From: Dehalococcoidia bacterium
GTDB taxonomy: Bacteria; Chloroflexota; Dehalococcoidia; UBA2979
DNA: 64,000 nucleotides
Reading direction: 5' to 3'
Assembly: GCA_965262725.1 (NCBI GenBank)
Contig: OZ253555.1
Coordinates: 1,984,001-2,048,000, forward strand
Under the pieces are notes generated by a model. It was not told where the DNA came from and made no database searches. It saw nothing but the letters and a program-made list of their open reading frames with translations. The position numbers and the translations under genes are program-made. Below are positions 302 through 45,222 of this stretch, piece by piece (the first letter of the stretch is position 1; the number at the start of each line of letters is the position of its first letter).

Positions 302-2164
302 TCACCGACCAGCAGGAGGCATGAACGCCCCATATCGGCCCCAGCAGGCCACGGAGCCGTCCACCTGCACCCCGCAGGTGCGGTCATCCCCGGCGCTGAC
401 GGAGGCGAACTGCCCGTCCGGCGGCGTGGCCTCGCCATTCTCGTCACCGCCCCAGCAGGCCACGGAGCCGTCGGTCTTCACCCCGCAGGTGTGCTCCACC
501 CCGGCGCTGACCGAGGCGAACTCCCCCTCCGGCGGCGTCGCCTGGCCAAAGCGATTCTTGCCCCAGCAGGCGACGGTGCCGTCGGTCTTCACCCCGCAGG
601 TGTGAGACGACCCGGCGCTGACCGAGGCGAACTGCCCGTCCGGCGGCGTGGCTCGGCCACTCCCATCATGGCCCCAGCAGGCCACGAAGCCGTCCCGCTT
701 CACCCCGCAGGTGTACAAGGACCCGGCGCTGACCGAGGCGAACTCCCCCTCCGGCGGCGTGGCCTCGCCCAATTCACTCCCGCCCCAGCAGGCCACGGAG
801 TGGTCGGTCCTCACCCCGCAGGTGTGCTCATACCCGGCGCTGGCGGAGGTGAATTCCCCTTCCGGATGAGACTTGGCTCTTGACGATCCCCTTGAAGAAT
901 CTCCCCAGCAGGCCAACGTCCCGTCCCGCCGAACTCCGCAGGTGTGGTTATACCCGGCAGAGCGCGTGCCGGTGCTGACCGCAGTGAACTCCCCCTCCGG
1001 AGGCACTCCACAGGATATGCAATCATCTGAACGCAATCCCCAGCAGGCCACCTCGCCGTCTACCCGCACTCCGCAGGTGTAAGCATCCCCTTTGGCGCTG
1101 ACCGCGATGAACTTTTTGCCCGGCGGCGTCGCCTGGCCAACGCGATTATCGCCCCAGCAGGCGACGGTGCCGTCGGTCTTCACCCCGCAGGTGTGCAAGT
1201 ACCCGGCGCTGACGGAGGCGAACTGCCCCTCCGGCGGCGTGGACTGGCCATTCTCGCCCCAGCAGGCGACGGTGCCGTCGGTCTTCACCCCGCAGGTGTG
1301 CAAGTACCCGGCGCTGACGGAGGCGAACTGCCCCTCCGGCGGCGTGGACTGGCCATTCTCGCCCCAGCAGGCGACGGTGCCGTCCCGCTTCACCCCGCAG
1401 GTGTACTTGTACCCGACGCTGACCGAGGCGAACTCCCCCTCCGGCGGCGTCGCCTGGCCAACGCCACTCGCGCCCCAGCAGGCGACGGTGCCGTCGGTCT
1501 TCACCCCGCAGGTGTGCCCATACCCGACGCTGACGGAGGCGAACTGCCCCTCCGGCGGCGTCGCCTGGCCAACGCCACTCGCGCCCCAGCAGGCGACGGT
1601 GCCGTCGGTCTTCACCCCGCAGGTGTGCCCATACGCGACGCTGACGGAGGCGAACTGCCCCTCCGTCGTCGCCGCCTGGCCAACGCCACTCGCGCCCCAG
1701 CAGGCGACGGTGCCGTCGGTCTTCACCGCGCAGGTGCGGTCATCCCCGGCGCTGACGGAGGCGAACTGCCCCTCCGGCGGCGTGGCCTCGCCATTCTCGT
1801 CACCGCCCCAGCAGGCCACGGAGCCGTCCCGCTTCACCCCGCAGGTGTGCAAGTACCCGGCGCTGACGGAGGCGAACTGCCCCTCCGGCGGCGTGGCCTC
1901 GCCGCCTGCCATGATGGGCCGGTCTTGGTCTGCCTCCCCGGTGGATCCTGGGATGTCCAGGCCGAAGGGGGTCTGCGATTGCGATCCCGAGGATCCGGCC
2001 TCCTGCGTCGCTTCCCGCTCATCCGCCCGCTCGAGCAGCGAGCCGGAGTCGCCTGCGTCCTCGCCTTCGGTGCAGGCCGCGAGGGCCGCCGCCAGCACCA
2101 GCGCAAGGACAACGCCCAACAGGGTCCCGCATCTTGGCGCTCGCCTACCGGTCATTTTCTTCAC
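302..2164 (-). CDS. RCC1-like repeat (beta-propeller) lipoprotein
   Basis: Signal peptide with lipobox LAAC; about 14 repeats of ~37 aa (ATPPEGxFxSVSAGxxHTCGVxxDGxVACWG); GGGAGG RBS. Confidence 0.85.
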   Translation of the reverse strand: MKKMTGRRAPRCGTLLGVVLALVLAAALAACTEGEDAGDSGSLLERADEREATQEAGSSGSQSQTPFGLDIPGSTGEADQDRPIMAGGEATPPEGQFASVSAGYLHTCGVKRDGSVACWGGDENGEATPPEGQFASVSAGDDRTCAVKTDGTVACWGASGVGQAATTEGQFASVSVAYGHTCGVKTDGTVACWGASGVGQATPPEGQFASVSVGYGHTCGVKTDGTVACWGASGVGQATPPEGEFASVSVGYKYTCGVKRDGTVACWGENGQSTPPEGQFASVSAGYLHTCGVKTDGTVACWGENGQSTPPEGQFASVSAGYLHTCGVKTDGTVACWGDNRVGQATPPGKKFIAVSAKGDAYTCGVRVDGEVACWGLRSDDCISCGVPPEGEFTAVSTGTRSAGYNHTCGVRRDGTLACWGDSSRGSSRAKSHPEGEFTSASAGYEHTCGVRTDHSVACWGGSELGEATPPEGEFASVSAGSLYTCGVKRDGFVACWGHDGSGRATPPDGQFASVSAGSSHTCGVKTDGTVACWGKNRFGQATPPEGEFASVSAGVEHTCGVKTDGSVACWGGDENGEATPPDGQFASVSAGDDRTCGVQVDGSVACWGRYGAFMPPAGR

Positions 2165-35207: not shown

Positions 35208-36533
35208 TCAGGCCGGGAGCGGTATCGCCCGTAGTCGCGCGAGCGCGGCTGCCAGCTGCTCTGCCCAGGGCCAGCGCTTCGGGAGGTGCAGAGTCCACCG
35301 CCGGGCAGAGCGGGTGAGCCGTCCGGCGAGAGAGAAGTAGCGTCGCCTGAGCGTCCTGGTCGTCACGATCCCCTCGCCGAGCCCGAGGCGTGCCGTCCAG
35401 CGGGCGAGGTTGTGCGCGATCACCTGCACCGCGAGCCACGCCGCGTTCGCGGCGAAGCGGCCCGAGGGGAGATGGTTCAACCCGACGCCGTACTTGAGGT
35501 CGCGGATCGCGTTCTCGATCTCGGCGTGACGGCGATGGTCGGCCTCCAGCTCCATCATCTCCCCCGCGCGGTTGGTGATGAAGGCGTGGTAACTGTAGTC
35601 CACGAAGAGCGCGAGCTGTGAGCCGGGCGTCGGCGTGACGCGCCGCACGATGAGCCGCACCGCAGTGGCGTCTCCCGTGTGCTGGAACGGCGTGTAGGTC
35701 GTCTCGGCGACAGCGGCGCCGCCCGGCAGCCAGTACGGGATCGGCGTCCAGTCCTCTTCCGGTATCGCCTCGATCAGCCGGCGTACGTTCGGCTGCTGCC
35801 GAATAGTGATTGAGAAGCGGACATCCTGCTTGCGACAGACGGCGACGACAGCGTGGTTGTAGAAGCCGCTGTCGGCGCGCACCGTGAGCTGCCCGCTCGC
35901 CCCGGCGTCGCGCACCCGCGCCACCGTCTCACGCAGGAAGTGTGCGGCCCCCCGAGCGGTGTTGGCACGGCCCCCGCGCAGCCGGGCCATCAGCACCTCA
36001 CCCGTCCCGGCCGCCACCGCGAGCAGCGGGTGATAGCCGCGCACGCCCGTGTAGCCGTGGTGCCGGGCGCCCTCCTTGGCGAGGCCGTAGGTCTCGCAGA
36101 GCGTCGAGTCGAGGTCGATGGTGAACGGCGCCGCGCCGGGTCCCGCCCCGGCCGCCCAGCTGCGGGCGAGCAACTCGCGGCTGACGCGGTCGAGCTGACG
36201 GACGTGGCCCCAACGGAAGCTGCGCAGAAACGTCCCGAGGGTGGACGGCGCCTTCACGGTGCAGCCGAGCACGCGCCCGGCGCCGCCTGAGCGCATGGCA
36301 TCGGCGTCATCGATGCAGTCGCCGCCCGCGAGCGCCGAGGCGATGAGAGTCATCAGCTTGTCGCCGACGTTCGCCCGCCCCGCTGCGTCACCGAGGTCGA
36401 GGTGGGCGTCTGCCAGTTCACGGAGGCCGAGCCGGCCAGCGAGCGTGGCCGGGAGCAGCAGGCCCGCGTGGTCCACGAGGCGGTCGTCGTCGAAGGCGAT
36501 GTGTATCCGGTCGGGGCTGCTCGTTGGTAGCAT
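35208..36533 (-). CDS. IS1380 transposase
   Basis: TIDLDST, GYHPLL, RADSGFY, EIENAIRDLK, LPSGRFAANAAW motifs. Confidence 0.93.
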   Translation of the reverse strand: MLPTSSPDRIHIAFDDDRLVDHAGLLLPATLAGRLGLRELADAHLDLGDAAGRANVGDKLMTLIASALAGGDCIDDADAMRSGGAGRVLGCTVKAPSTLGTFLRSFRWGHVRQLDRVSRELLARSWAAGAGPGAAPFTIDLDSTLCETYGLAKEGARHHGYTGVRGYHPLLAVAAGTGEVLMARLRGGRANTARGAAHFLRETVARVRDAGASGQLTVRADSGFYNHAVVAVCRKQDVRFSITIRQQPNVRRLIEAIPEEDWTPIPYWLPGGAAVAETTYTPFQHTGDATAVRLIVRRVTPTPGSQLALFVDYSYHAFITNRAGEMMELEADHRRHAEIENAIRDLKYGVGLNHLPSGRFAANAAWLAVQVIAHNLARWTARLGLGEGIVTTRTLRRRYFSLAGRLTRSARRWTLHLPKRWPWAEQLAAALARLRAIPLPA

Positions 36534-37152
36534 CGAATGGGGTGCGCCAGGCTAACTGGTGCTTGGGCAGGAGGTGCAAGTCCTCTACGGCGAAGGAGCA
36601 AGCCACTCCACGCGGTTCCGCGAGCCGTGCGCGACTCGTCGCGAGGCGAGCCGTGAAGCGTCGGCAGCGGGGTAGGCGGGCGGAGCTATTGAGCATCGAA
36701 AGATGCATAATCCGGAGTGCCGAGGCTTTCCCATTGGTCGAAGGCAACACCGGCGACGGCGCTTCTGGCGAGCCGTCGTCGGGCTCTGCGGTGTCAAAGA
36801 ACTCACGCACGTCTGCACGTCCAGCACCGGGACCTCATATGGATGCCTCGGTTGTCAAGCCCCGTCCAGCGGTACTTGAACGTCCGGTCTGCGGCGGCGG
36901 CGGTCGCGCGAGGATGACGACTCCGGGGTGGCGAAGGAGGGATGAGCGGGAATTGTTCGACGTTTTGTCATTCTCAGAGGTATAGCCAGAAGTTGTGGAT
37001 GAGCCAGGAGAGAGAGGCGGCGTACCCTCCCTGAGTCAACAGGAGTGGCCGGGAAGTGTCGATCGCCAGGGTCATTGAGCCACGCGTCGCCACGGTCATT
37101 GGACCACCCGGGACGCCGGTAGGCGGCTTGATATCAGTGAGCGTCTAGCGCG

Positions 37153-37926
37153 TCAATCACCTCCCGTCTGCGCCTCGAGCAGGGCGCGGTGCGGCGAGAG
37201 CCGCTGGCGGTAGCTATCGCCCTCGATCACGATCTGGTAGCTGGCGTTCGCGAGCCGGTCGAGGGCGCTGTTGCCGAGGATCGGGTCGTCGAAGAGACCC
37301 AGCCATTCCTCCACGGCGCGGTTCGAGGTGATCACGAAGCTCGAGCTGCGGTGGCGCCCGATGACCAGCTCGTAGAGGTCGATGGACTGCTGCGCGCTGA
37401 GGCGATGGAGCCCGAGGTCGTCGAGGATGAGCAGGTCGGGCGCGAGGAAGCTTCGGAAGACCTTCTCGGCCGAGTGGTCGACGCGGGCCTGCGCCATCTC
37501 GCGGAAGTAGTGGTCGGCCGGGGCGAAGCGCACGGTGCGTCCGGAGCGGACGGCTGAGTAGCCGAGCGCCTGGGCTAAGAAGCTCTTGCCGACGCCGACG
37601 GGGCCGACGAGCAGGACGTGCTCGCGGCGGTCGAGGAAGTGCAGCGAGAAGGCGGCGTCGAGCAGGCGGCGGTCGAGCCGGATGGCGGCCGCCCAGTCGA
37701 AGTCCTCGAGGCGGCAGAGCTGCTCGAAGCCGGCCTGGCGCAGGCGCAGCTCCAACCGCCCGTGGTCGCGGCGGCTCACCTCGTCGACGAGCAGGATCTG
37801 CAGGAAGTCCGCGTAGTCGAGGTGGTCGCGCCGCGCGAGGGCGATGCGCTCGGGCAACGTGTCGAGCATACGGCCGAGCTTGAGGCGCTTGAGCAGCGGA
37901 CGGAGGTCTGAGGTGGTGGCGGTCAT
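37153..37926 (-). CDS. istB: IS21 helper ATPase
   Basis: GPVGVGKS, LILDDLG, TSNR, ALDRL; ATGA overlap with istA. Confidence 0.93.
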   Translation of the reverse strand: MTATTSDLRPLLKRLKLGRMLDTLPERIALARRDHLDYADFLQILLVDEVSRRDHGRLELRLRQAGFEQLCRLEDFDWAAAIRLDRRLLDAAFSLHFLDRREHVLLVGPVGVGKSFLAQALGYSAVRSGRTVRFAPADHYFREMAQARVDHSAEKVFRSFLAPDLLILDDLGLHRLSAQQSIDLYELVIGRHRSSSFVITSNRAVEEWLGLFDDPILGNSALDRLANASYQIVIEGDSYRQRLSPHRALLEAQTGGD

Positions 37927-39503
37927 CGTGGTGCTCCTGTCGGGGTCTGCGTGCGGGACTGTGCGAAGACGGAGCCCGAGTGGGCGAAGCGCCCCGGAGG
38001 CGGCGGCAGCTCGGGCTGGTCTGGGGTGCTCTCCTGGTCGAGGGCCTCGACGAGGATGCGCTCGAGGCGGCGCACGTCGATGAGGTCGACCTCGAGCGCG
38101 CGGCGGCAGGCGGCGTCGAGGCGGTCCGGGGAGTAGCGCTCGGCGAGGCGCAGCAGCTTGTGGCCCTGCCGCAGCTTCGCCCAGGGCAGGGAGCCCTCGA
38201 AGAGACGCTCGGCGTAGGCGCCCACGGCCTCCCCCAGCTCGGCGGCGCGGCGCTGTATCCAGTCGGGCGCCCGCCTGGTGTAGGGGGTGAGCTCGGCCGG
38301 GTAGTCGTTCGGGTCGGTGGCGCGGCCGCCCCGGCGCTGGCGCGGGTGGACCTTGATGAGCTGACCGCGGTGGTAGATGCGCACCAGCTTCGAGCCGAGC
38401 TGCACCTCGACCTTCTGGCGGGGCGGGCAGGCCGTGGACGGCACCGAGTACAGCGCGTACTGGCAGGCGATGTGGTGGTCGGGATGGACCGTGGCGGTCC
38501 GCCAGTCGGGGACCTCGTAGGGCTCGCCGTCCCAGGGAGCGAGGAGAGGGAGCTCCTCCTCCCGGAAGACCTCGAGCGGCCGGCGGCGGGTCGTGCCGTG
38601 GATGCGCTGTCCCGCCACCTCCAGGCACCAGCTGCGGGCGGCGGAGCGCAGGTCGACGACGTCCCGGAAGTCGCCGCCCTTGAAGAGGCGCTCGCGCACG
38701 TAGGGGATGCTGCGCTCGACGCGCGGCTTGTCGCGGGGATGACGCACGCGCGCGGGGTCGGTGATGAAGCCGCGGTGGCGGGCGTACTCGAGGAAGCCCC
38801 GCGTGAAGCGCGGGTGCAGCGCGTCGGCCCCGGCGACGGCGGCCGGGAAGTTATCGATGACGAGGTAGCGGGGCACGCCCCCGAAGAAGGACCAGGCCTC
38901 CTCCAGGCCCTCGATCACAGCGTCCAGCTTCTGGCTGGTGGTGGGCCACACAAAGCAGTGGCGGGAGTAGCGCCAGACGACGACCAGCGCCCACACCGCG
39001 CGCCGGCGGCCGCTCTCGGGGTCCCGGATGAAGCCGAGGCGGCCGAAGTCCATCTCCGCCACCTCGCCCGGCGGCCCGTCGTCCATGCGCACGGTCGACG
39101 GCAGCCGGTGGCGCCAGCCGCGGCGCCGGATGAAACGCCGCAGCGTGGTGTAGGAGACCTCGCAGCCTCGTCCGGCGAGGAGCTCCTGGATGCGCGTCAG
39201 TTGCAGGCGGTCGGTCTCAAGCCAGCGCTCGATCTGCTCCGCCCAGGGCGAGAGCAGCTCTTCGCTCGGCGCCTCGACCTGCCGCGGGCCGGAGAGGCTC
39301 AGCGTCGCCAGCGCGGCGAGCTGCTCCTCACTCGGCTCGGGACCGTCAGGTGTGAGGCCGGCCGCTTCGGCCGCGTCGATGTAGCGGCGGACCGTCTGAC
39401 GCGACAACCCCATCCCGCTGGCGATGCGGCGCTGGCTGAGCCCCGCCTGCCAGCGACGAATGATCTCCTGAATCTCCACCCCGTGTACCTCCCGGTAGGC
39501 CAT
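37923..39503 (-). CDS. istA: IS21 transposase
   Basis: AEMDFG, LVIDN, PRDKPRVER, HGTT motifs. Confidence 0.93.
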   Translation of the reverse strand: MAYREVHGVEIQEIIRRWQAGLSQRRIASGMGLSRQTVRRYIDAAEAAGLTPDGPEPSEEQLAALATLSLSGPRQVEAPSEELLSPWAEQIERWLETDRLQLTRIQELLAGRGCEVSYTTLRRFIRRRGWRHRLPSTVRMDDGPPGEVAEMDFGRLGFIRDPESGRRRAVWALVVVWRYSRHCFVWPTTSQKLDAVIEGLEEAWSFFGGVPRYLVIDNFPAAVAGADALHPRFTRGFLEYARHRGFITDPARVRHPRDKPRVERSIPYVRERLFKGGDFRDVVDLRSAARSWCLEVAGQRIHGTTRRRPLEVFREEELPLLAPWDGEPYEVPDWRTATVHPDHHIACQYALYSVPSTACPPRQKVEVQLGSKLVRIYHRGQLIKVHPRQRRGGRATDPNDYPAELTPYTRRAPDWIQRRAAELGEAVGAYAERLFEGSLPWAKLRQGHKLLRLAERYSPDRLDAACRRALEVDLIDVRRLERILVEALDQESTPDQPELPPPPGRFAHSGSVFAQSRTQTPTGAPR

Positions 39504-39689
39504 CGCTGCTCCCTCCGCTGGGGATGCAGGCGATGGTGGCCGTACCGGCGGCCCGAGTGGTCAGACCCCCCGGAGGGGTGGCTCAATGACCTTGGCGAAG
39601 TGGCACATAGACCCTGGCGATCTCGCCGTTTGCTGGTCTATAGATCCTGGCGATTCACACGGGAAGCCGGCCGGGGAGGAGTACGCCGG

Positions 39690-40967
39690 ATGTTGAGGAT
39701 AGTCCATGAGGGAGGCGAGCGGGAAGCGGGGCCGGGGACGCAGGTCGGACTGGACGAGCTCTGCCGCATGGCCGCCCAGGAGATGCTCGGGGTGGCGCTG
39801 GAGGCCGAACGGCAGGCCTACCTCGAGCGCCACGCGGGCGCGGTCGATAGAGAGGGCCGCCGCGTGGTCGTCGGCAACGGCTACGCCCGCGCGAGAGAGA
39901 TCACGACCGCCGCGGGACGGGTCGCCGTACAGGCGCCGCGCGTCGACGACCGCCGTCCCGGCGAGCGCTACATCTCGGCGCTTCTGCCGCCCTACATGCG
40001 GCGCTCGCCCAAGGTGACCGAGGTGTTGCCGCTGCTCTACCTGCGCGGGCTCTCGACGGGCGACTTCCTGCCCGCCCTGTCGGCGTTCTTCGGCTCGGGG
40101 GCGGGGCTCTCCGCCTCGACCGTGGGGCGGCTCACGGAGGCGTGGCAGGCCGAGCACGAGCGCTGGCAGCGACGCAGCCTGGCCGAGGTCGACTACGTCT
40201 ACCTCTGGGCGGACGGCGTCCACTTCACCGTGCGTCTCGAGGAGGACCGGCTCTGCTGCCTGGTGCTGGTCGGGGTGCGCCCGGACGGCCGCAAGGAGCT
40301 GGTGGCCGTGCAGGACGGCTACCGTGAGGACACCCAGTCCTGGCTCGACCTGCTGCGGGACCTGCGCGAGCGGGGCATGCGCGACCCCGAGCTGGCCGTC
40401 GGCGACGGGGCGCTCGGGTTCTGGGCGGCGCTGCGGGAGGTCTTTCCCCGGACCCGCGAGCAGCGCTGCTGGGTGCACAAGACCGCGAACGTCCTGGCGG
40501 CGCTGCCCGAGCGCGTCCAGGGGGAAGCGGCGCGGGCGCTCCACACCGTCTCCGGAGCCGCGACGCGCGCCGGGGCGCTGGATGCGGCGCGCGCCTTCGC
40601 CGGGCAGTTCGCGCAGTGGCCGAAGGCGACAGCGAAGGTCGCCGACGACCTCGAACGGCTGCTCGCGTTCCACGACTTCCCGTCCGAGCACCACGTGCAC
40701 CTGCGCACAACGAACCCGATCGAGTCCACCTTCGCCACGGTCCGGCTGCGCCAGCGCGTCACGAAGGGCGCCGGCTCCCGGTCGGCGGGACTGGCGATGG
40801 CCTACAAGCTGCTCGACGCGGCGCAGCAGCGCTGGCGGCGGGTGAATGCCCCGCATCTCGTCGCCGTCGTCCGGGCGGGCGGCGTCTTCGTCGATGGCGT
40901 CCTACAGGAACGAGCCGTCAGCCCGGATGCGAGCGACGATGCACGCCACGGGAGGTACGCCGCCTAA
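39690..40967 (+). CDS. IS256 (Mutator-type) transposase
   Basis: YLRGLSTGDF, LWADG, GDGALGFW, QRCWVHK, RTTNPIES; GAGGAG RBS. Confidence 0.93.
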   Translation: MLRIVHEGGEREAGPGTQVGLDELCRMAAQEMLGVALEAERQAYLERHAGAVDREGRRVVVGNGYARAREITTAAGRVAVQAPRVDDRRPGERYISALLPPYMRRSPKVTEVLPLLYLRGLSTGDFLPALSAFFGSGAGLSASTVGRLTEAWQAEHERWQRRSLAEVDYVYLWADGVHFTVRLEEDRLCCLVLVGVRPDGRKELVAVQDGYREDTQSWLDLLRDLRERGMRDPELAVGDGALGFWAALREVFPRTREQRCWVHKTANVLAALPERVQGEAARALHTVSGAATRAGALDAARAFAGQFAQWPKATAKVADDLERLLAFHDFPSEHHVHLRTTNPIESTFATVRLRQRVTKGAGSRSAGLAMAYKLLDAAQQRWRRVNAPHLVAVVRAGGVFVDGVLQERAVSPDASDDARHGRYAA

Positions 40968-41202
40968 CTTGCCCTGGCCAGCGATCCACAACTCTTGACG
41001 ATATCTCTCATTCTCATATCCGCGGGTTGCCAGTGGCAGAGCCGCATGACCCTTCTTCGTCAGGAGCAGGCGCATTCTGATATCGCGGGTTGGCGACGCG
41101 AAGCGTCGTTGCCGCATGGTTCCGTCGCGCAGTCTCCGAAACGTAGTCCCGCTTATCCGTCCTTCACCGCCCCCGGAGTCGAGGTCCCCGCCCTCCGCGG
41201 CC

Positions 41203-41336
41203 ACCTCCGCTGCATGCTCCTCACTCGCGGCGATGCCTGAGAGCCCCTGCTCCGTCGGGCGGATGTGCTCATCCGTCATCTCGACCCTCTGCAGGTAGCT
41301 GCCGAAGGCCGCCTGGGCGCCCTTCTCCTCGAAGGA
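41203..41336 (-). pseudogene. Diverged internal fragment of the IS1111 recombinase between the two RNA units
   Basis: SFEEKGAQAAFGSYLQRVEMTDEHIR..EEHAAE versus SFEEVGDQAAFDGYLQRVEMADEHIR..EEYAPE (~42086-42220). Confidence 0.85.
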
Positions 41337-41586
41337 GATGACGACTCCGGGGTGGCGAAGGAGGGATGAGCGGGAATCACTCGACGTTGTGTCACTCTCA
41401 TAGTCGCGGGTTGCCAGTGGCAGAGCCGCATGACCTTTCTTCGTCGGGAGGGGGCGCCGTCTGGGAACGCGGGTTGGCGACGCTTCGCGTCGTTGCCGCA
41501 TGGTCCCGTCGCGCGATCTCCAGAATGTGGTCCCGTTCATCCGTCCTTCACCGCCCCCGGAGTCGACGTCTCCGCCCTCCGCGGCC
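41337..41586 (-). ncRNA. Bridge/seek RNA unit A
   Basis: Long closing stem (41343.. / ..41564) and two GCGG..CCGC hairpins flanked by guides; target guides CTGGGA (41461-41466) and GGTCCCG (41502-41508) match the occupied site. Confidence 0.8.
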
Positions 41587-41631
41587 GGTCTGTCCTCCTC
41601 TCCGTCCGCTCCCTGTTCGTGGCCAGCCGGC

Positions 41632-42744
41632 TCAGGCGGCCTGCCGCCGCTGGTCAGCGTGGGTGCGCAGCACCGCCCAGATGGCGGCGAGCAGCTCCCG
41701 CGCCACGGCCACGACGGCGACCTGCGACGGCTTGCCTCGCTCCTTGAGATGCCGGTAGCGCCGGGACATCCGGGAACCGGTCTTGTCGGCCATCGCGACC
41801 GCCCAGCCCGGCTGGCCCTCCCGCCGTCTGCGCAGCGGCGCCCCGACCCGGTACGGGCGGATGCTGTGCCACCCCGCCTCGACCAGCACGCGCCGGACGT
41901 GGGTGTTCCCCGTCTTCGTGATGCCGCCGCGCCGCGTCCGCGGGCCTGAGCTGTGCTCGCTCGCCACCAACCCCACGTACGCTGCCAGCTGGTCGGGGCT
42001 TCCGAATCGCGTGATGTCGCCGAGCTCGCCCAGGATCGTCATGGCGGTGACCGTGTCGATGCCGCGGAAGCAGCGGAGGAGTCCCGCCTCCGGCGCATAC
42101 TCCTCACTCGCGACGATGTCTGAGAGCCTCTCTTCCATCAGGCGGATGTGTTCATCCGCCATCTCCACGCGCTGCAGGTAGCCGTCGAATGCCGCCTGGT
42201 CGCCCACTTCCTCGAAGGAGAGCGAGCGCAGCCAGCACCGGTGCTCTCGGGTCCACGTAGACTTACCATAATGGTGGCCCGAGCGCAGCAGGAACCCCGA
42301 CAGTTGCACCTGGGCCGTCTTGCGGGCCGCAACGGCGTCCTCGCGCCCACGGGTGAGGTTGCGCACAGATTCCTGCCGCTCAGTCGGCTGGTGCACCTCG
42401 GTGAGCAGTCCCGCGCGCAAGAGATGCGCCAGGTTCCGCGCGTCGCGGCGGTCCGTCTTGACGCGGTCTCCCGGCTTTGTGGGGATCAGCGCCGGCGCGA
42501 TGACGCGGCAGTCGATCCCCTTCGCATCGAGAGTGCGCTTCAGCCCGAACCCGGTCGGGCCCGCCTCGTAGCAACAGACCACGGAATCCCCGGCCTCGCG
42601 GCGCAGTCGCCGCGCCAGCGCCGCCACGGACGTCGGCTCGTTGGCGAGCTGCCACTCTTCGGGCTTCTTCTCCCCGTGCAGAACGGAGACGTTGATCGTC
42701 CGCGCGTGCACGTCGAGGCCCACGTATAGCTTCGTCTGGTCCAT
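41632..42744 (-). CDS. IS110-family DEDD recombinase/transposase
   Basis: VGLDVHA, CYEAGPTG, KTDRRDA (DEDD) and SEHSSG catalytic-serine region. Confidence 0.95.
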   Translation of the reverse strand: MDQTKLYVGLDVHARTINVSVLHGEKKPEEWQLANEPTSVAALARRLRREAGDSVVCCYEAGPTGFGLKRTLDAKGIDCRVIAPALIPTKPGDRVKTDRRDARNLAHLLRAGLLTEVHQPTERQESVRNLTRGREDAVAARKTAQVQLSGFLLRSGHHYGKSTWTREHRCWLRSLSFEEVGDQAAFDGYLQRVEMADEHIRLMEERLSDIVASEEYAPEAGLLRCFRGIDTVTAMTILGELGDITRFGSPDQLAAYVGLVASEHSSGPRTRRGGITKTGNTHVRRVLVEAGWHSIRPYRVGAPLRRRREGQPGWAVAMADKTGSRMSRRYRHLKERGKPSQVAVVAVARELLAAIWAVLRTHADQRRQAA

Positions 42745-43305
42745 CTGGTCTGCCCCCTACCCCTTCCATGTTCCGGTCCGGTTCCGCTCCGATGTTGCAC
42801 TCGGAACAGAAACCGACACCGGTTCTCAAGGTGTCGAGGCATCCATAGGGTCTGGGAGGGCTCGGCCTTGTCCCTGCGTGTTGCCACGCCGGGACCGCAA
42901 CGGAAAGGGCGATTCCGTAATCCGTTGACGCACGAGGTCGAGCAATCAGATCCGGCCATAGTAGTGATGAGGGCGGCGAACAAAGAGGAGTAGACACCCT
43001 CGGCGGAGTCGACGGAGCGAAGGGCCGGACCGGAGGGGAAGCTGGCGAAGCCCGGCACTGGCGGGACACTGCGCCCGCGTTTGGTGTCACTCGGGCCACC
43101 CGGCTACGGCACCTCTTGGGTGCCGTCTGACCTGACGGAGGAGCCGTATGCGTTAACGCGCACGTACGGATCTGTCCGGGGGGCGGCCGGCAACGGCCGT
43201 CCCTACCGGAATTGCTCCCTGTGGCTGTGACGTGATTCGTTCAAAAACCATTGTCCCAGCTACAGCGGAGCACCCAACCGCAGACGCTCGCGCACTCTTC
43301 TTCGG

Positions 43306-45222
43306 TTCGCGGTAGGGATGCCGGTTGCCCGGCACCCCCCGCACAGATCCGGACGTGCCCTCTCGGGCATCCGGCTCCTACCTCAAGTGCGTGACGGCAA
43401 ATCGCTCCGCAGGCCACGGGTGAAGGATGGAGATTCGGGGCCAGTGTTTCTGGCACAGGGCAAGGATGCGCTCCCACGTGAAACGGTCGCGCTGCGACCG
43501 CCGTCGGAGAACGCGCAGCCAGAGCCGCTTCACGAAACGAACAAACTGCGTGAGCGCCGGCGAGCTGGTCGGCACCGCGTAGTAGCCAAGCCACCCACGC
43601 AGTACCCGCCCCAGCCACTGCCCCGTCGTCACGGGGTTGTCGTGCATGCGCCGCCACAACTCGGCCTTGATGGCCTTCAGCGTCCGGCGCATCCGCTTCG
43701 CAACGGGCTTGCGCCCCAGCCCGAATCTCCCGTCGCGTCGGGTCCGGCAGTAGTGCGTCATGCCGAGAAAGTCGAACGTCTCCGGTCGGCCCTCCCCGCG
43801 CTTCCGCCTGTTCGCCAGCGCGAACCTGCCGAACTCAAGTAGACGGGTCTTCTCCGGGTGCAGCTCCAGCCCGTAGGCCGCGAACCGCTCCCGGAGTGCC
43901 TCCATGAACCGCACCGCATCGCTGCGGTGCTGGAACCCCAGGACGAAGTCATCGGCATACCGCACGATGTACGCCTCGCCCCGGACCTCCCGCGGTCGCC
44001 ACTCGCGCGCAAACCAGTCGTCGAGCACGTTGTGCAGGTACACGTTCGCAAGCAGCGGCGATATCGGCGCCCCCTGCGGCATCCCCCGCACGAAATCGAC
44101 TTCCGGCTCCGCGTCCATGACGCCGACGCTCAGCCACTTTCGTATCAGGCGCAACACCCGCTGGTCCCCGATGCGCATCTCCAGAAACGACATCAGCCGC
44201 CCCCGGTCGATGCTGCCGAAGAACTCCCGGATGTCCACCTCGACAATCCAGCTGACCTTGCGCCGTTCGACCGCGTAGGCCAGTGCGTCCAGCGCGTCAT
44301 GCGCCGAACGCCCCGGCCTGAAGCCATGCGAGAAGCCGTAGTAGCCCGACTCGTAAATCGGGTTCAAAAGATTGTCCACCACCGCCCGCTGAACGATCTT
44401 GTCCTCCAGCGAGACGATACCGAGCGGCCGTATTCCCCCGTCCGGCTTGGGTATCTCTACCCGCCTGACGGGCTTCGCCCGGTACGCTCCACGGTGTACG
44501 CGGCCATGCAGGTCGAGCAATCGCTCGTCCAGCCCGTCCCCGTATTCTCGCCACCTCACCCCGTCCACGCCCGGAGCCGCATCCCGCTTCAACGCGAGAT
44601 ACGCCTCCCGCAGCGCCTCCGGCGTGATGTGGTGCAAGAGCGCGGTGAGTTTCTCTCCCGGCTTCCGTTCCACGAACTGCCGTATCCTCTCCGCTCCGGG
44701 TGACACCGCACCCCGACTCTGCGTCCGGACCGTGCCGGTGCTTTGAGGATTCCTCTCGGTTGGGGCCCTTTGCTCCAGCGACTCCGCCGGGGCTCGCGCC
44801 CCCTTGTTCGCCGCCTTCATCGCTCGTACGGCCCCATCAGACTGCTGCGCATCGTTCATCATCGGCTACGGTTTACGTCCCTTCCCGACGCGGTCCCGGC
44901 GTACGACTCGTCGGGACAACGCGCAGCTCTCCCAAGTCCCGGCGATAGACGTGTGTGCGTGCATGGGGTCTTCGACACCGTGGGGCCCGACCACGACTCG
45001 CCAGTAGCGCCGTCGCCGGTATTGCCTTCGACCAATCCAAGAGCCTCGGCACCCCAAATGGCCCTTTCGATGCTCATTAGCCCCGCCCGCACACCCCGCT
45101 GCCGACGCTTCACAAGCCGCCTCGCGACGACCCGCGCACGGCTCGCGGAATGACATGAGTGGCTAGCTCTTTGCCATAGAGGACTTCCACCTCCTGCCTA
45201 CTCGCCAGTTAGCCTGGCGCTC
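43306..45222 (-). mobile_element. Group II intron with RT (bacterial class E-like)
   Basis: 5' GAGCG, domains V/VI at 43306-43380; EBS1 TGGATT (45034-45039) pairs with exon GATCCA; the exons rejoin to CCCTGATCCA|CCGAAGAAG as in IS1380 copy 2. Confidence 0.88.
43378..44862 (-). CDS. ltrA: Group II intron reverse transcriptase/maturase (no En domain)
   Basis: APGVDG, IPKPDG..RPLGI, GFRPGRS, PQGAPISPLLAN, YADD, FDFLG, domain X. Confidence 0.95.
   Translation of the reverse strand: MMNDAQQSDGAVRAMKAANKGARAPAESLEQRAPTERNPQSTGTVRTQSRGAVSPGAERIRQFVERKPGEKLTALLHHITPEALREAYLALKRDAAPGVDGVRWREYGDGLDERLLDLHGRVHRGAYRAKPVRRVEIPKPDGGIRPLGIVSLEDKIVQRAVVDNLLNPIYESGYYGFSHGFRPGRSAHDALDALAYAVERRKVSWIVEVDIREFFGSIDRGRLMSFLEMRIGDQRVLRLIRKWLSVGVMDAEPEVDFVRGMPQGAPISPLLANVYLHNVLDDWFAREWRPREVRGEAYIVRYADDFVLGFQHRSDAVRFMEALRERFAAYGLELHPEKTRLLEFGRFALANRRKRGEGRPETFDFLGMTHYCRTRRDGRFGLGRKPVAKRMRRTLKAIKAELWRRMHDNPVTTGQWLGRVLRGWLGYYAVPTSSPALTQFVRFVKRLWLRVLRRRSQRDRFTWERILALCQKHWPRISILHPWPAERFAVTHLR

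Follow-up and report, generated by a model that had tools for sequence, protein, structure and literature searches.

Two diverged tandem bridge-RNA units in an IS1111-group element from Dehalococcoidia, with guides that suggest a division of labour

Layout of the element and its two bridge-RNA units

The window analysed here, a stretch of 64,000 nucleotides (nt), covers positions 1984001-2048000 of the 3.67-Mb single-contig genome of a Dehalococcoidia bacterium (GCA_965262725.1, contig OZ253555.1; G000 hereafter) and contains, on its minus strand, an insertion sequence (IS) of the IS1111 group in which a single recombinase gene is followed by two different bridge-RNA units, A and B. The units share one fold and differ in their guides, the target guides of A corresponding to the occupied site and the donor guides of B to the element's own ends. 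Read along the element, and with coordinates given in the window, the features of the locus are the following:

36836..42853, minus strand: whole IS1111-group element, with ends common to four genome copies; ~1978 nt without the IS256-type insertion and one copy of its target duplication
42745..42853, minus strand: left end, in which AG-ACCC precedes the 13-nt subterminal inverted repeat TATGGATGCCTCG (~42835-42847)
41632..42744, minus strand: DEDD (IS110-family) recombinase gene, 370 amino acids (aa); Pfam PF01548 (2.2e-17) and PF02371 (5.2e-21)
41337..41586, minus strand: bridge-RNA unit A, by its fold and by covariance model R2 (162.0 bits)
41203..41336, minus strand: decayed recombinase-gene fragment between the units, 134 nt, 83-86% identical to recombinase-gene nt 633-770
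41017..41202, minus strand: bridge-RNA unit B, 5' part, with closing stem, target-type loop, donor 5' guide AGGGTC and the first bases of the donor 3' guide
36977..41007, plus strand: IS256-type insertion, which splits unit B; target duplication TCATTCTCA at 36968-36976 and 41008-41016
36913..36976, minus strand: bridge-RNA unit B, 3' part, which completes the donor 3' guide (ATA|TGAG) and carries the closing stem
36836..36912, minus strand: right-end tail, which contains the subterminal repeat CGAGGCATCCATA and whose last bases, ...CATATG, precede the core AG
36577..43212, plus strand: host group II intron, apparently without an open reading frame (ORF), carrying the target CGGGAC-CT-GGGAG; Rfam RF02005 and RF00029

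The recombinase combines an N-terminal DEDD/RuvC-like domain (DEDD_Tnp_IS110) with a C-terminal Transposase_20 domain (IS116/IS110/IS902), as assigned by Pfam, and the element further shows the other traits of the IS1111 group, namely a guide RNA downstream of the gene, subterminal inverted repeats and site specificity for a core dinucleotide, which is AG on the element (minus) strand. The 13-nt repeat is set 4 nt inward from the left core and 2 nt inward from the right one, and the first 9 nt of the left end are invariant in all 12 complete copies. In the copy of the window, the IS256-type insertion sits within the donor guide of unit B, flanked by a 9-bp duplication. Its removal restores 615 + 141 = 756 nt of sequence 3' of the recombinase stop codon, a region that a preliminary description of the window had proposed from the letters of this copy; the reconstruction rests on real sequence, because three uninterrupted copies in the same genome run straight across the IS256 site.

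Units A and B, of 250 nt each, start 45 nt and ~430 nt after the stop codon, respectively, and are identical at 221 of their 250 positions (88%; BLAST E 3e-88). Both fold into a long closing stem and two arms, each formed by an internal loop that is capped by a GCGG...CCGC hairpin. The target loop of unit A carries the guides CGGGACC / TCCCAG and its donor loop the guides AAGGTC / CTATGAG, each of the latter with one mismatch to the real ends, while the corresponding pairs in unit B are CGGAACC / ATATCAG in the target-type loop and AGGGTC / ATATGAG in the donor loop. The guide complementary to the top strand precedes that for the bottom strand, which is the 5' to 3' order described for IS1111-type seekRNAs (Siddiquee et al., 2024, PMC11187229). 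The two units, their common fold and differing guide segments, the position of the guide RNA 3' of the gene and its reversed guide order had all been put forward in the preliminary description, and all hold. Between 36000 and 43500, Rfam returned no bridge-RNA family at E ≤ 1 and matched only group II intron models; the missing match reflects a subfamily that is not curated and is not evidence against the structure.

Copies, origin and maintenance of the unit pair

The succession of unit A, gene remnant and unit B is present in all 13 copies of the element that we found, four in G000 and nine in a genome of the same genus (G003). Two of the G000 copies are identical over 2095 nt, yet lie in diverged intron copies and in opposite orientation, and G003 holds eight identical complete copies (1975 nt) and an interrupted one, at nine different sites that are mostly outside introns. 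The four junctions in G000 are identical, which bears out both the element boundaries and the empty site CGGGAC-CT-GGGAG of the preliminary description; further support comes from contigs of other samples that skip exactly 2095 nt, the long form of the element, with a 2-nt overlap, such precise empty sites being seen in the contigs of three of the four DNA runs examined. At 13/13 junctions AG stands on both sides, and there is no target duplication beyond this core. Twenty DNA runs, from ten studies, contain the element. Among the contig matches shown for four of them we found neither a joint that leaves out an entire unit nor one that links the two ends into a circle, a result that, coming from contigs, cannot prove the absence of either. 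The composite moves as one unit.

Two of the copies in G003 (L002 and L003) have swapped flanks, the intron flank lying only to the right of one and only to the left of the other, as expected from recombination between two element copies.

The paired arrangement is rare. Among 80 metagenomic relatives with 40-63% aa identity in the recombinase, a covariance-model search placed exactly one unit 3' of the gene in 75 and two units in none; the other five gave no unit match, in at least one case owing to a contig that stops shortly past the gene, and at least 33 relatives have 250 nt or more of sequence past the unit. Three elements in a genome of another genus of the same family (G008) carry one unit each, that at locus L020 without its 3' end, and more than two units were seen in none of the genomes or loci examined. 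The preliminary description had suggested that homologues which always carry a single unit would speak against an array of guides; the counts speak for the rarity of the arrangement and leave its activity aside. In one single-unit relative (L023; G008:C1:2023967-2027038, ~1100-1700, minus strand), the right end ...CATACAAGAG is fused inside another unit, exactly after that unit's target-loop 3' guide, yielding a partial tandem; this appears to be an insertion into the element's own guide gene, the guide-encoding DNA resembling the target.

The sequence between the units records how the pair came about. It is a remnant of the recombinase gene, which had escaped the preliminary description, as had the IS21-type element inside the IS256-type one and the identity of the host as a group II intron. 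In two other, long copies in G000 the remnant measures 251 nt and is 79-86% identical to recombinase-gene nt ~524-770. For some 14 nt past unit A the sequence still recalls the opening of the right-end tail found behind unit B; a short shared motif then marks the change to recombinase-gene nt ~421. At its other boundary the remnant breaks off at gene nt ~657, where another short shared motif leads into the beginning of unit B. The simplest history for this arrangement is an old partial tandem duplication that began midway through the recombinase gene and extended slightly beyond the RNA gene. It would have been followed by an internal deletion and then by further deletions in the remnant, of slightly differing extent: 117 nt in the copy of the window (also present in contigs from other samples), 123 nt in another copy and ~120 nt in G003, none of which reaches unit B. 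Aligned with the live gene, the long form of the remnant shows 50 differences in 237 bases (21%), distributed over the three codon positions as 17, 18 and 15 (of 79 each), and because this distribution is even, the remnant appears to have spent most of the time since the copies parted as a pseudogene beside unit B. An origin by fusion of two independent elements was rejected, as the differences are not concentrated at third codon positions.

Against this neutral background, the divergence between units A and B is strongly partitioned. Of their 29 differences, three fall into the 114 paired columns and 26 into the 122 unpaired ones (Fisher 6e-6), so that the unpaired columns have diverged by 21%, equal to the pseudogene remnant, and the paired columns by 2.6%. 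A covariance model built from 53 metagenomic relatives, and containing neither A nor B (model R2), scores the intact unit B at 164.6 bits, slightly above unit A, while single units of G008 reach 149 and 141 bits, below both; the folding and modelling proposed in the preliminary description therefore place the two units in the same family. Across this family, 94.1% of cells are paired and 43 of 57 pairs have changed on both sides; none of 500 shuffles scored as high and slid controls gave 35-44% paired cells, in an alignment that was fitted to the model and is thus biased toward structure. Unit B is as good a family member as unit A, its stems having been protected while the adjoining DNA decayed, and since the paired columns are nearly unchanged where the gene fragment has lost about 21% of its identity without codon bias, both folds look maintained by selection.

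Guide matches to target and donor DNA

On the target side, the guides that fit are those of unit A. The flanks of its first loop match both strands of the occupied site (7 + 6 nt), as the preliminary description had noted for one copy, and all 13 insertion sites fit its target guides better than those of unit B. The right half GTCCCG is matched at 5-6 of 6 positions in every site, and the position that discriminates between A and B is of the A type in all 13. Several sites in G003 match just two of the four left-half bases, which recalls the half-match insertions reported for IS621 (10.64898/2026.08.31.748434). In G000, the exact target with a CT core is found in two empty copies, and CGGGACTTGGGAG, in which the core of the target has T in place of C, at 14 sites (e.g., 734712, 1522197 and 1850062), none of which is occupied by any of the four element copies.

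The preliminary description had offered, as one of two functional ideas, that the array addresses several targets, the first loop of unit B being live and directing the element to a second site, ATATC-AG-GTTCCG (on the other strand, CGGAAC-CT-GATAT). This predicted 13-mer, written down before any genome search, occurs once in G000, at 2411043, where ~0.02 occurrences are expected, and it falls within a repeat family of ~250 bp with five copies in the genome (G000:C1: 2410970-2411229, 3384791-3385032, 328868-329118, 1509059-1509271 and 3187856-3187993), repeats being the usual prey of IS1111-group elements. Three further copies carry a variant of the site that differs by one or two bases, reading CTGAACCTGAYAT, and the fifth is more diverged. 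The target arm of unit B is, in addition, structurally intact and its guides are invariant in 13/13 copies. Set against this, none of the 13 insertions lies at a B-type site, the exact site and its four relatives in G000 are all empty, and G003, with its nine copies of the element, has no B-type site within one mismatch. Nor do the guides themselves require selection for a new address: they differ from those of unit A at 4 of 13 positions, and since this is close to the 21% seen in all unpaired columns and in the pseudogene fragment, drift suffices to explain them. The 3' target guide of unit B, ATATCAG, is moreover identical to the family-typical donor guide, which suggests another origin, and the first loop may have drifted or been copied from a donor arm. 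An array with several live targets has so far found no support among the insertions, and we regard it as unlikely.

The repeat family that holds the predicted site is also present in G008, and some of its copies abut sequence that resembles the T-arm of a transfer RNA (tRNA). It has no Rfam match and no bridge-RNA unit nearby, and a check for tRNA genes gave nothing convincing, ARAGORN making one odd call of 100 nt in one of the five loci. Three further readings were discarded. A repeat copy in G008 is truncated just before the B-type site and is not an insertion; a recombinase remnant ~750 nt from one repeat copy lies on the wrong strand for an element inserted there; and, as a dedicated reader of the occupied right junction, the first loop of unit B would match 11 of 13 positions, but the left junction is matched by no loop.

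On the donor side, the order of merit is inverted. The donor loop of unit B matches the joined ends of the element over 6 + 7 nt, and its guides (AGGGTC and ATATGAG) agree with the ends at every position and are invariant in 13/13 copies, whereas those of unit A occur in three variants among the copies, with one to two mismatches to the ends; the claim of the preliminary description that B has the better donor loop thus extends to every copy. In G003, the donor 3' guide of unit A is mismatched at two of seven positions, including the base beside the core, which only unit B matches. That this guide reads the right end is typical of the family: an exact copy of the donor 3' guide lies 22-182 nt 3' of the unit in 31 of the 33 single-unit relatives scored, a count that left out 18 mis-registered guides (read as ATCAGAG or ATGAGAG), 10 relatives with less than 100 nt downstream and five that could not be parsed. 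The corresponding check of the left end used a window so wide that matches with one mismatch are expected by chance. The element and unit B also share a matched change, as the family-typical guide is ATATCAG and both the end of the element and the guide of unit B read ATATGAG.

Among the 13 copies of unit A there are three internal substitutions, and all of them fall within its 13 donor-guide bases (window ~41395-41405 and 41433-41440), where they exceed the neutral expectation at an overall divergence of 1-2%.

These matches bear on two simpler accounts of the second unit. In the first, B is a by-product of the duplication, kept because the right end of the element lies past it, and A does everything. 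All insertion sites do fit A, the same duplication left an obviously useless gene fragment, the relatives manage with one unit, and in the window's own copy B is broken by the IS256-type insertion. A by-product would not be expected to keep its paired positions nearly unchanged (3/114 differences) beside a fragment that decayed by 21%, nor to score slightly above A with a model built from neither; it is B that holds the end-matching donor guides, including the core-adjacent base that A has lost in G003, and the deletions in the fragment, differing in extent, all stop before reaching B. We therefore find this account improbable, to about the same degree as that of several live targets. In the second, the units are interchangeable bridge RNAs and the two copies merely boost RNA supply, which we consider very doubtful: both folds are intact and family-typical, guide mismatches are few and half-matching sites are reported to suffice for recombination (10.64898/2026.08.31.748434), but the target guides of B differ from every used site at the discriminating positions, and the guide differences are complementary, A being good for the target and B for the donor, and not random.

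Division of labour, related systems and genomic setting

The reading that we favour, at about even chances, is that the two RNAs split the work, with the target read by A and the donor by B; it corresponds to the second functional idea of the preliminary description, the combination of A's target loop with B's donor loop. Both RNAs would probably be cut from a read-through transcript shared with the recombinase gene and then be bound by the recombinase. Co-transcription with the gene is an assumption, made as consensus scans of the element for sigma-70 promoters and terminators gave no match inside it (the phylum's own signals may differ). The target loop of A (CGGGACC / TCCCAG) would select the site ...CC-AG-GTCCCG, the donor loop of B (AGGGTC / ATATGAG) would read the element's joined ends, and the synaptic complex would contain the target loop of an A molecule and the donor loop of a B molecule. 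In the synaptic complex of IS621, the target and donor loops are contributed by two separate molecules of bridge RNA (Hiraizumi et al., 2024, PMC11208158), so that a complex of this composition would need nothing new from the protein.

Several points weigh against a division of labour, or against the steps that lead to it. A single mismatch per arm, as in the donor loop of A in G000, may well be tolerated, so that A alone might suffice, and a role restricted to the donor does not account for the intact target arm of B. The structure used to compare paired and unpaired columns came partly from A and B themselves, a dependence that neither the family covariation nor model R2 shares; and if A and B had diverged in separate elements before a fusion, the conservation of their stems would not be proof of selection after it, the codon-position argument against a late fusion resting on 237 nt only. 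All four copies in G000 lie in one intron family, and some of them may have been carried along by the intron instead of transposing. Finally, among the runs listed for the element there is no RNA run.

A more far-reaching version, which we regard as speculative and rather unlikely, is that of a natural two-guide system in which one copy has been freed to explore. The first loop of B would then be either a second address, at the 250-bp repeat family, or a reader of the family-typical junction between right end and flank, ATATC-AG-GTTCCG, which would promote excision or tandem growth; either way, mixed guide pairs would be in use.

Elements of the IS1111 and IS110 groups with a single guide are well described. 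Among them and other known systems, the element is closest in layout to ISEc11, ISPa11 and ISKpn4 (PMC11187229), with which it shares the DEDD recombinase, subterminal inverted repeats, a downstream guide RNA, the guide order and site-specific insertion into repeats; it departs from them, each being described with one seekRNA, in its two diverged units, the gene remnant between these and a group II intron as target. As in IS621, the RNA has two loops, for target and donor, each of which addresses both strands next to a core dinucleotide (Durrant et al., 2024, PMC11208160; PMC11208158). In IS621, of the IS110 group, the RNA lies upstream and is described as one species, whereas here the two molecules of the complex could be products of two genes with complementary strengths. 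Tandem repeats of non-coding sequence and duplicated modules have been reported at IS110 loci in a 2026 preprint, whose survey admitted only repeats of 95% identity or more and reported left-donor half-matches at their boundaries (10.64898/2026.08.14.744561). Our locus is likewise a partial tandem duplication beside an IS110-family recombinase gene, but its repeats are 88% identical and old, their guides differ and the composite is still mobile; neither duplication boundary has a donor match resembling ATATGAG or ATATCAG, only short shared motifs, and the main text of that preprint mentions neither several bridge RNAs nor IS1111.

An extra small-RNA module downstream of the gene of an IS110-family element is also described for ISPpu9 and MITEPpu9, where the Ssr9 module, located 3' of the gene, occurs at times as a tandem duplicate (Pares-Guillen et al., 2025, PMC12288879). 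Ssr9 has end-like boxes of its own, moves alone and is dispensable for transposition, in contrast to which no end-like sequence follows unit A and no solo unit is present in G000. The term tandem array, used in the preliminary description, is apt in that there are two complete units of different sequence; these do not form a repeat-spacer array of the CRISPR or TIGR kind, as there are only two units of 250 nt, separated by a gene remnant and made by duplication, not acquisition. In the literature consulted, we found no description of two diverged tandem guide genes in one element, a statement from which supplementary lists of bridge RNAs, which might hold multi-unit elements, are excepted.

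Recombinases guided by bridge or seek RNAs are under development as programmable genome-writing tools, and the locus bears on how their guides and ends co-evolve in nature. If the units do divide the work, this would be the first natural case found of guide-gene duplication followed by division of labour, with both guides kept through ~21% neutral divergence. It would suggest a route to retargeting, in which one unit maintains mobility while the other drifts and the target changes without mobility being lost, and would offer a model from nature for delivering the target guide and the donor guide from separate genes. Were unit B inert, the locus would be only an unusually well-preserved duplication scar.

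The element stands in a nest of mobile DNA that is four deep in the window (36577-43212), with a group II intron holding the IS1111-type element, this the IS256-type insertion, and the latter an IS21-type element. The intron is matched by Rfam RF02005 at 36577-36803 (E 4e-49) and, in its domain V/VI, by RF00029 at 43139-43212 (39.3 bits, just below the gathering score of 40). The transposase ORF of the IS256-type insertion lies at 39690-40967 (Pfam Transposase_mut, 1.4e-58), and the innermost layer consists of the following features:

37057..39659, minus strand: IS21-type element inside the IS256-type insertion, flanked by the direct repeat CGGGAAG; Pfam rve / Mu-transpos_C_2 and IstB_IS21
37923-39503: istA of the IS21-type element; Pfam rve / Mu-transpos_C_2
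37153-37926: istB of the IS21-type element; Pfam IstB_IS21

The 3' end of the host intron is directly adjoined by a second group II intron on the opposite strand (43305-44862, minus), with a reverse-transcriptase ORF of 494 aa (RVT_1) and a domain V match at 43305-43379, and ~45 nt before the host intron's 5' end lies the end of a gene for an IS4-like DDE_Tnp_1_4 transposase of 441 aa (35208-36533, minus). Elsewhere in G000, remnants of related DEDD recombinase genes are scattered, with 57-83% aa identity over 24-60 residues, as are four copies of a distant IS110-family gene with 30% identity; positions of these remnants and distant genes on G000:C1 are 27390, 1075418, 329869, 1674142, 31134 and 23667.

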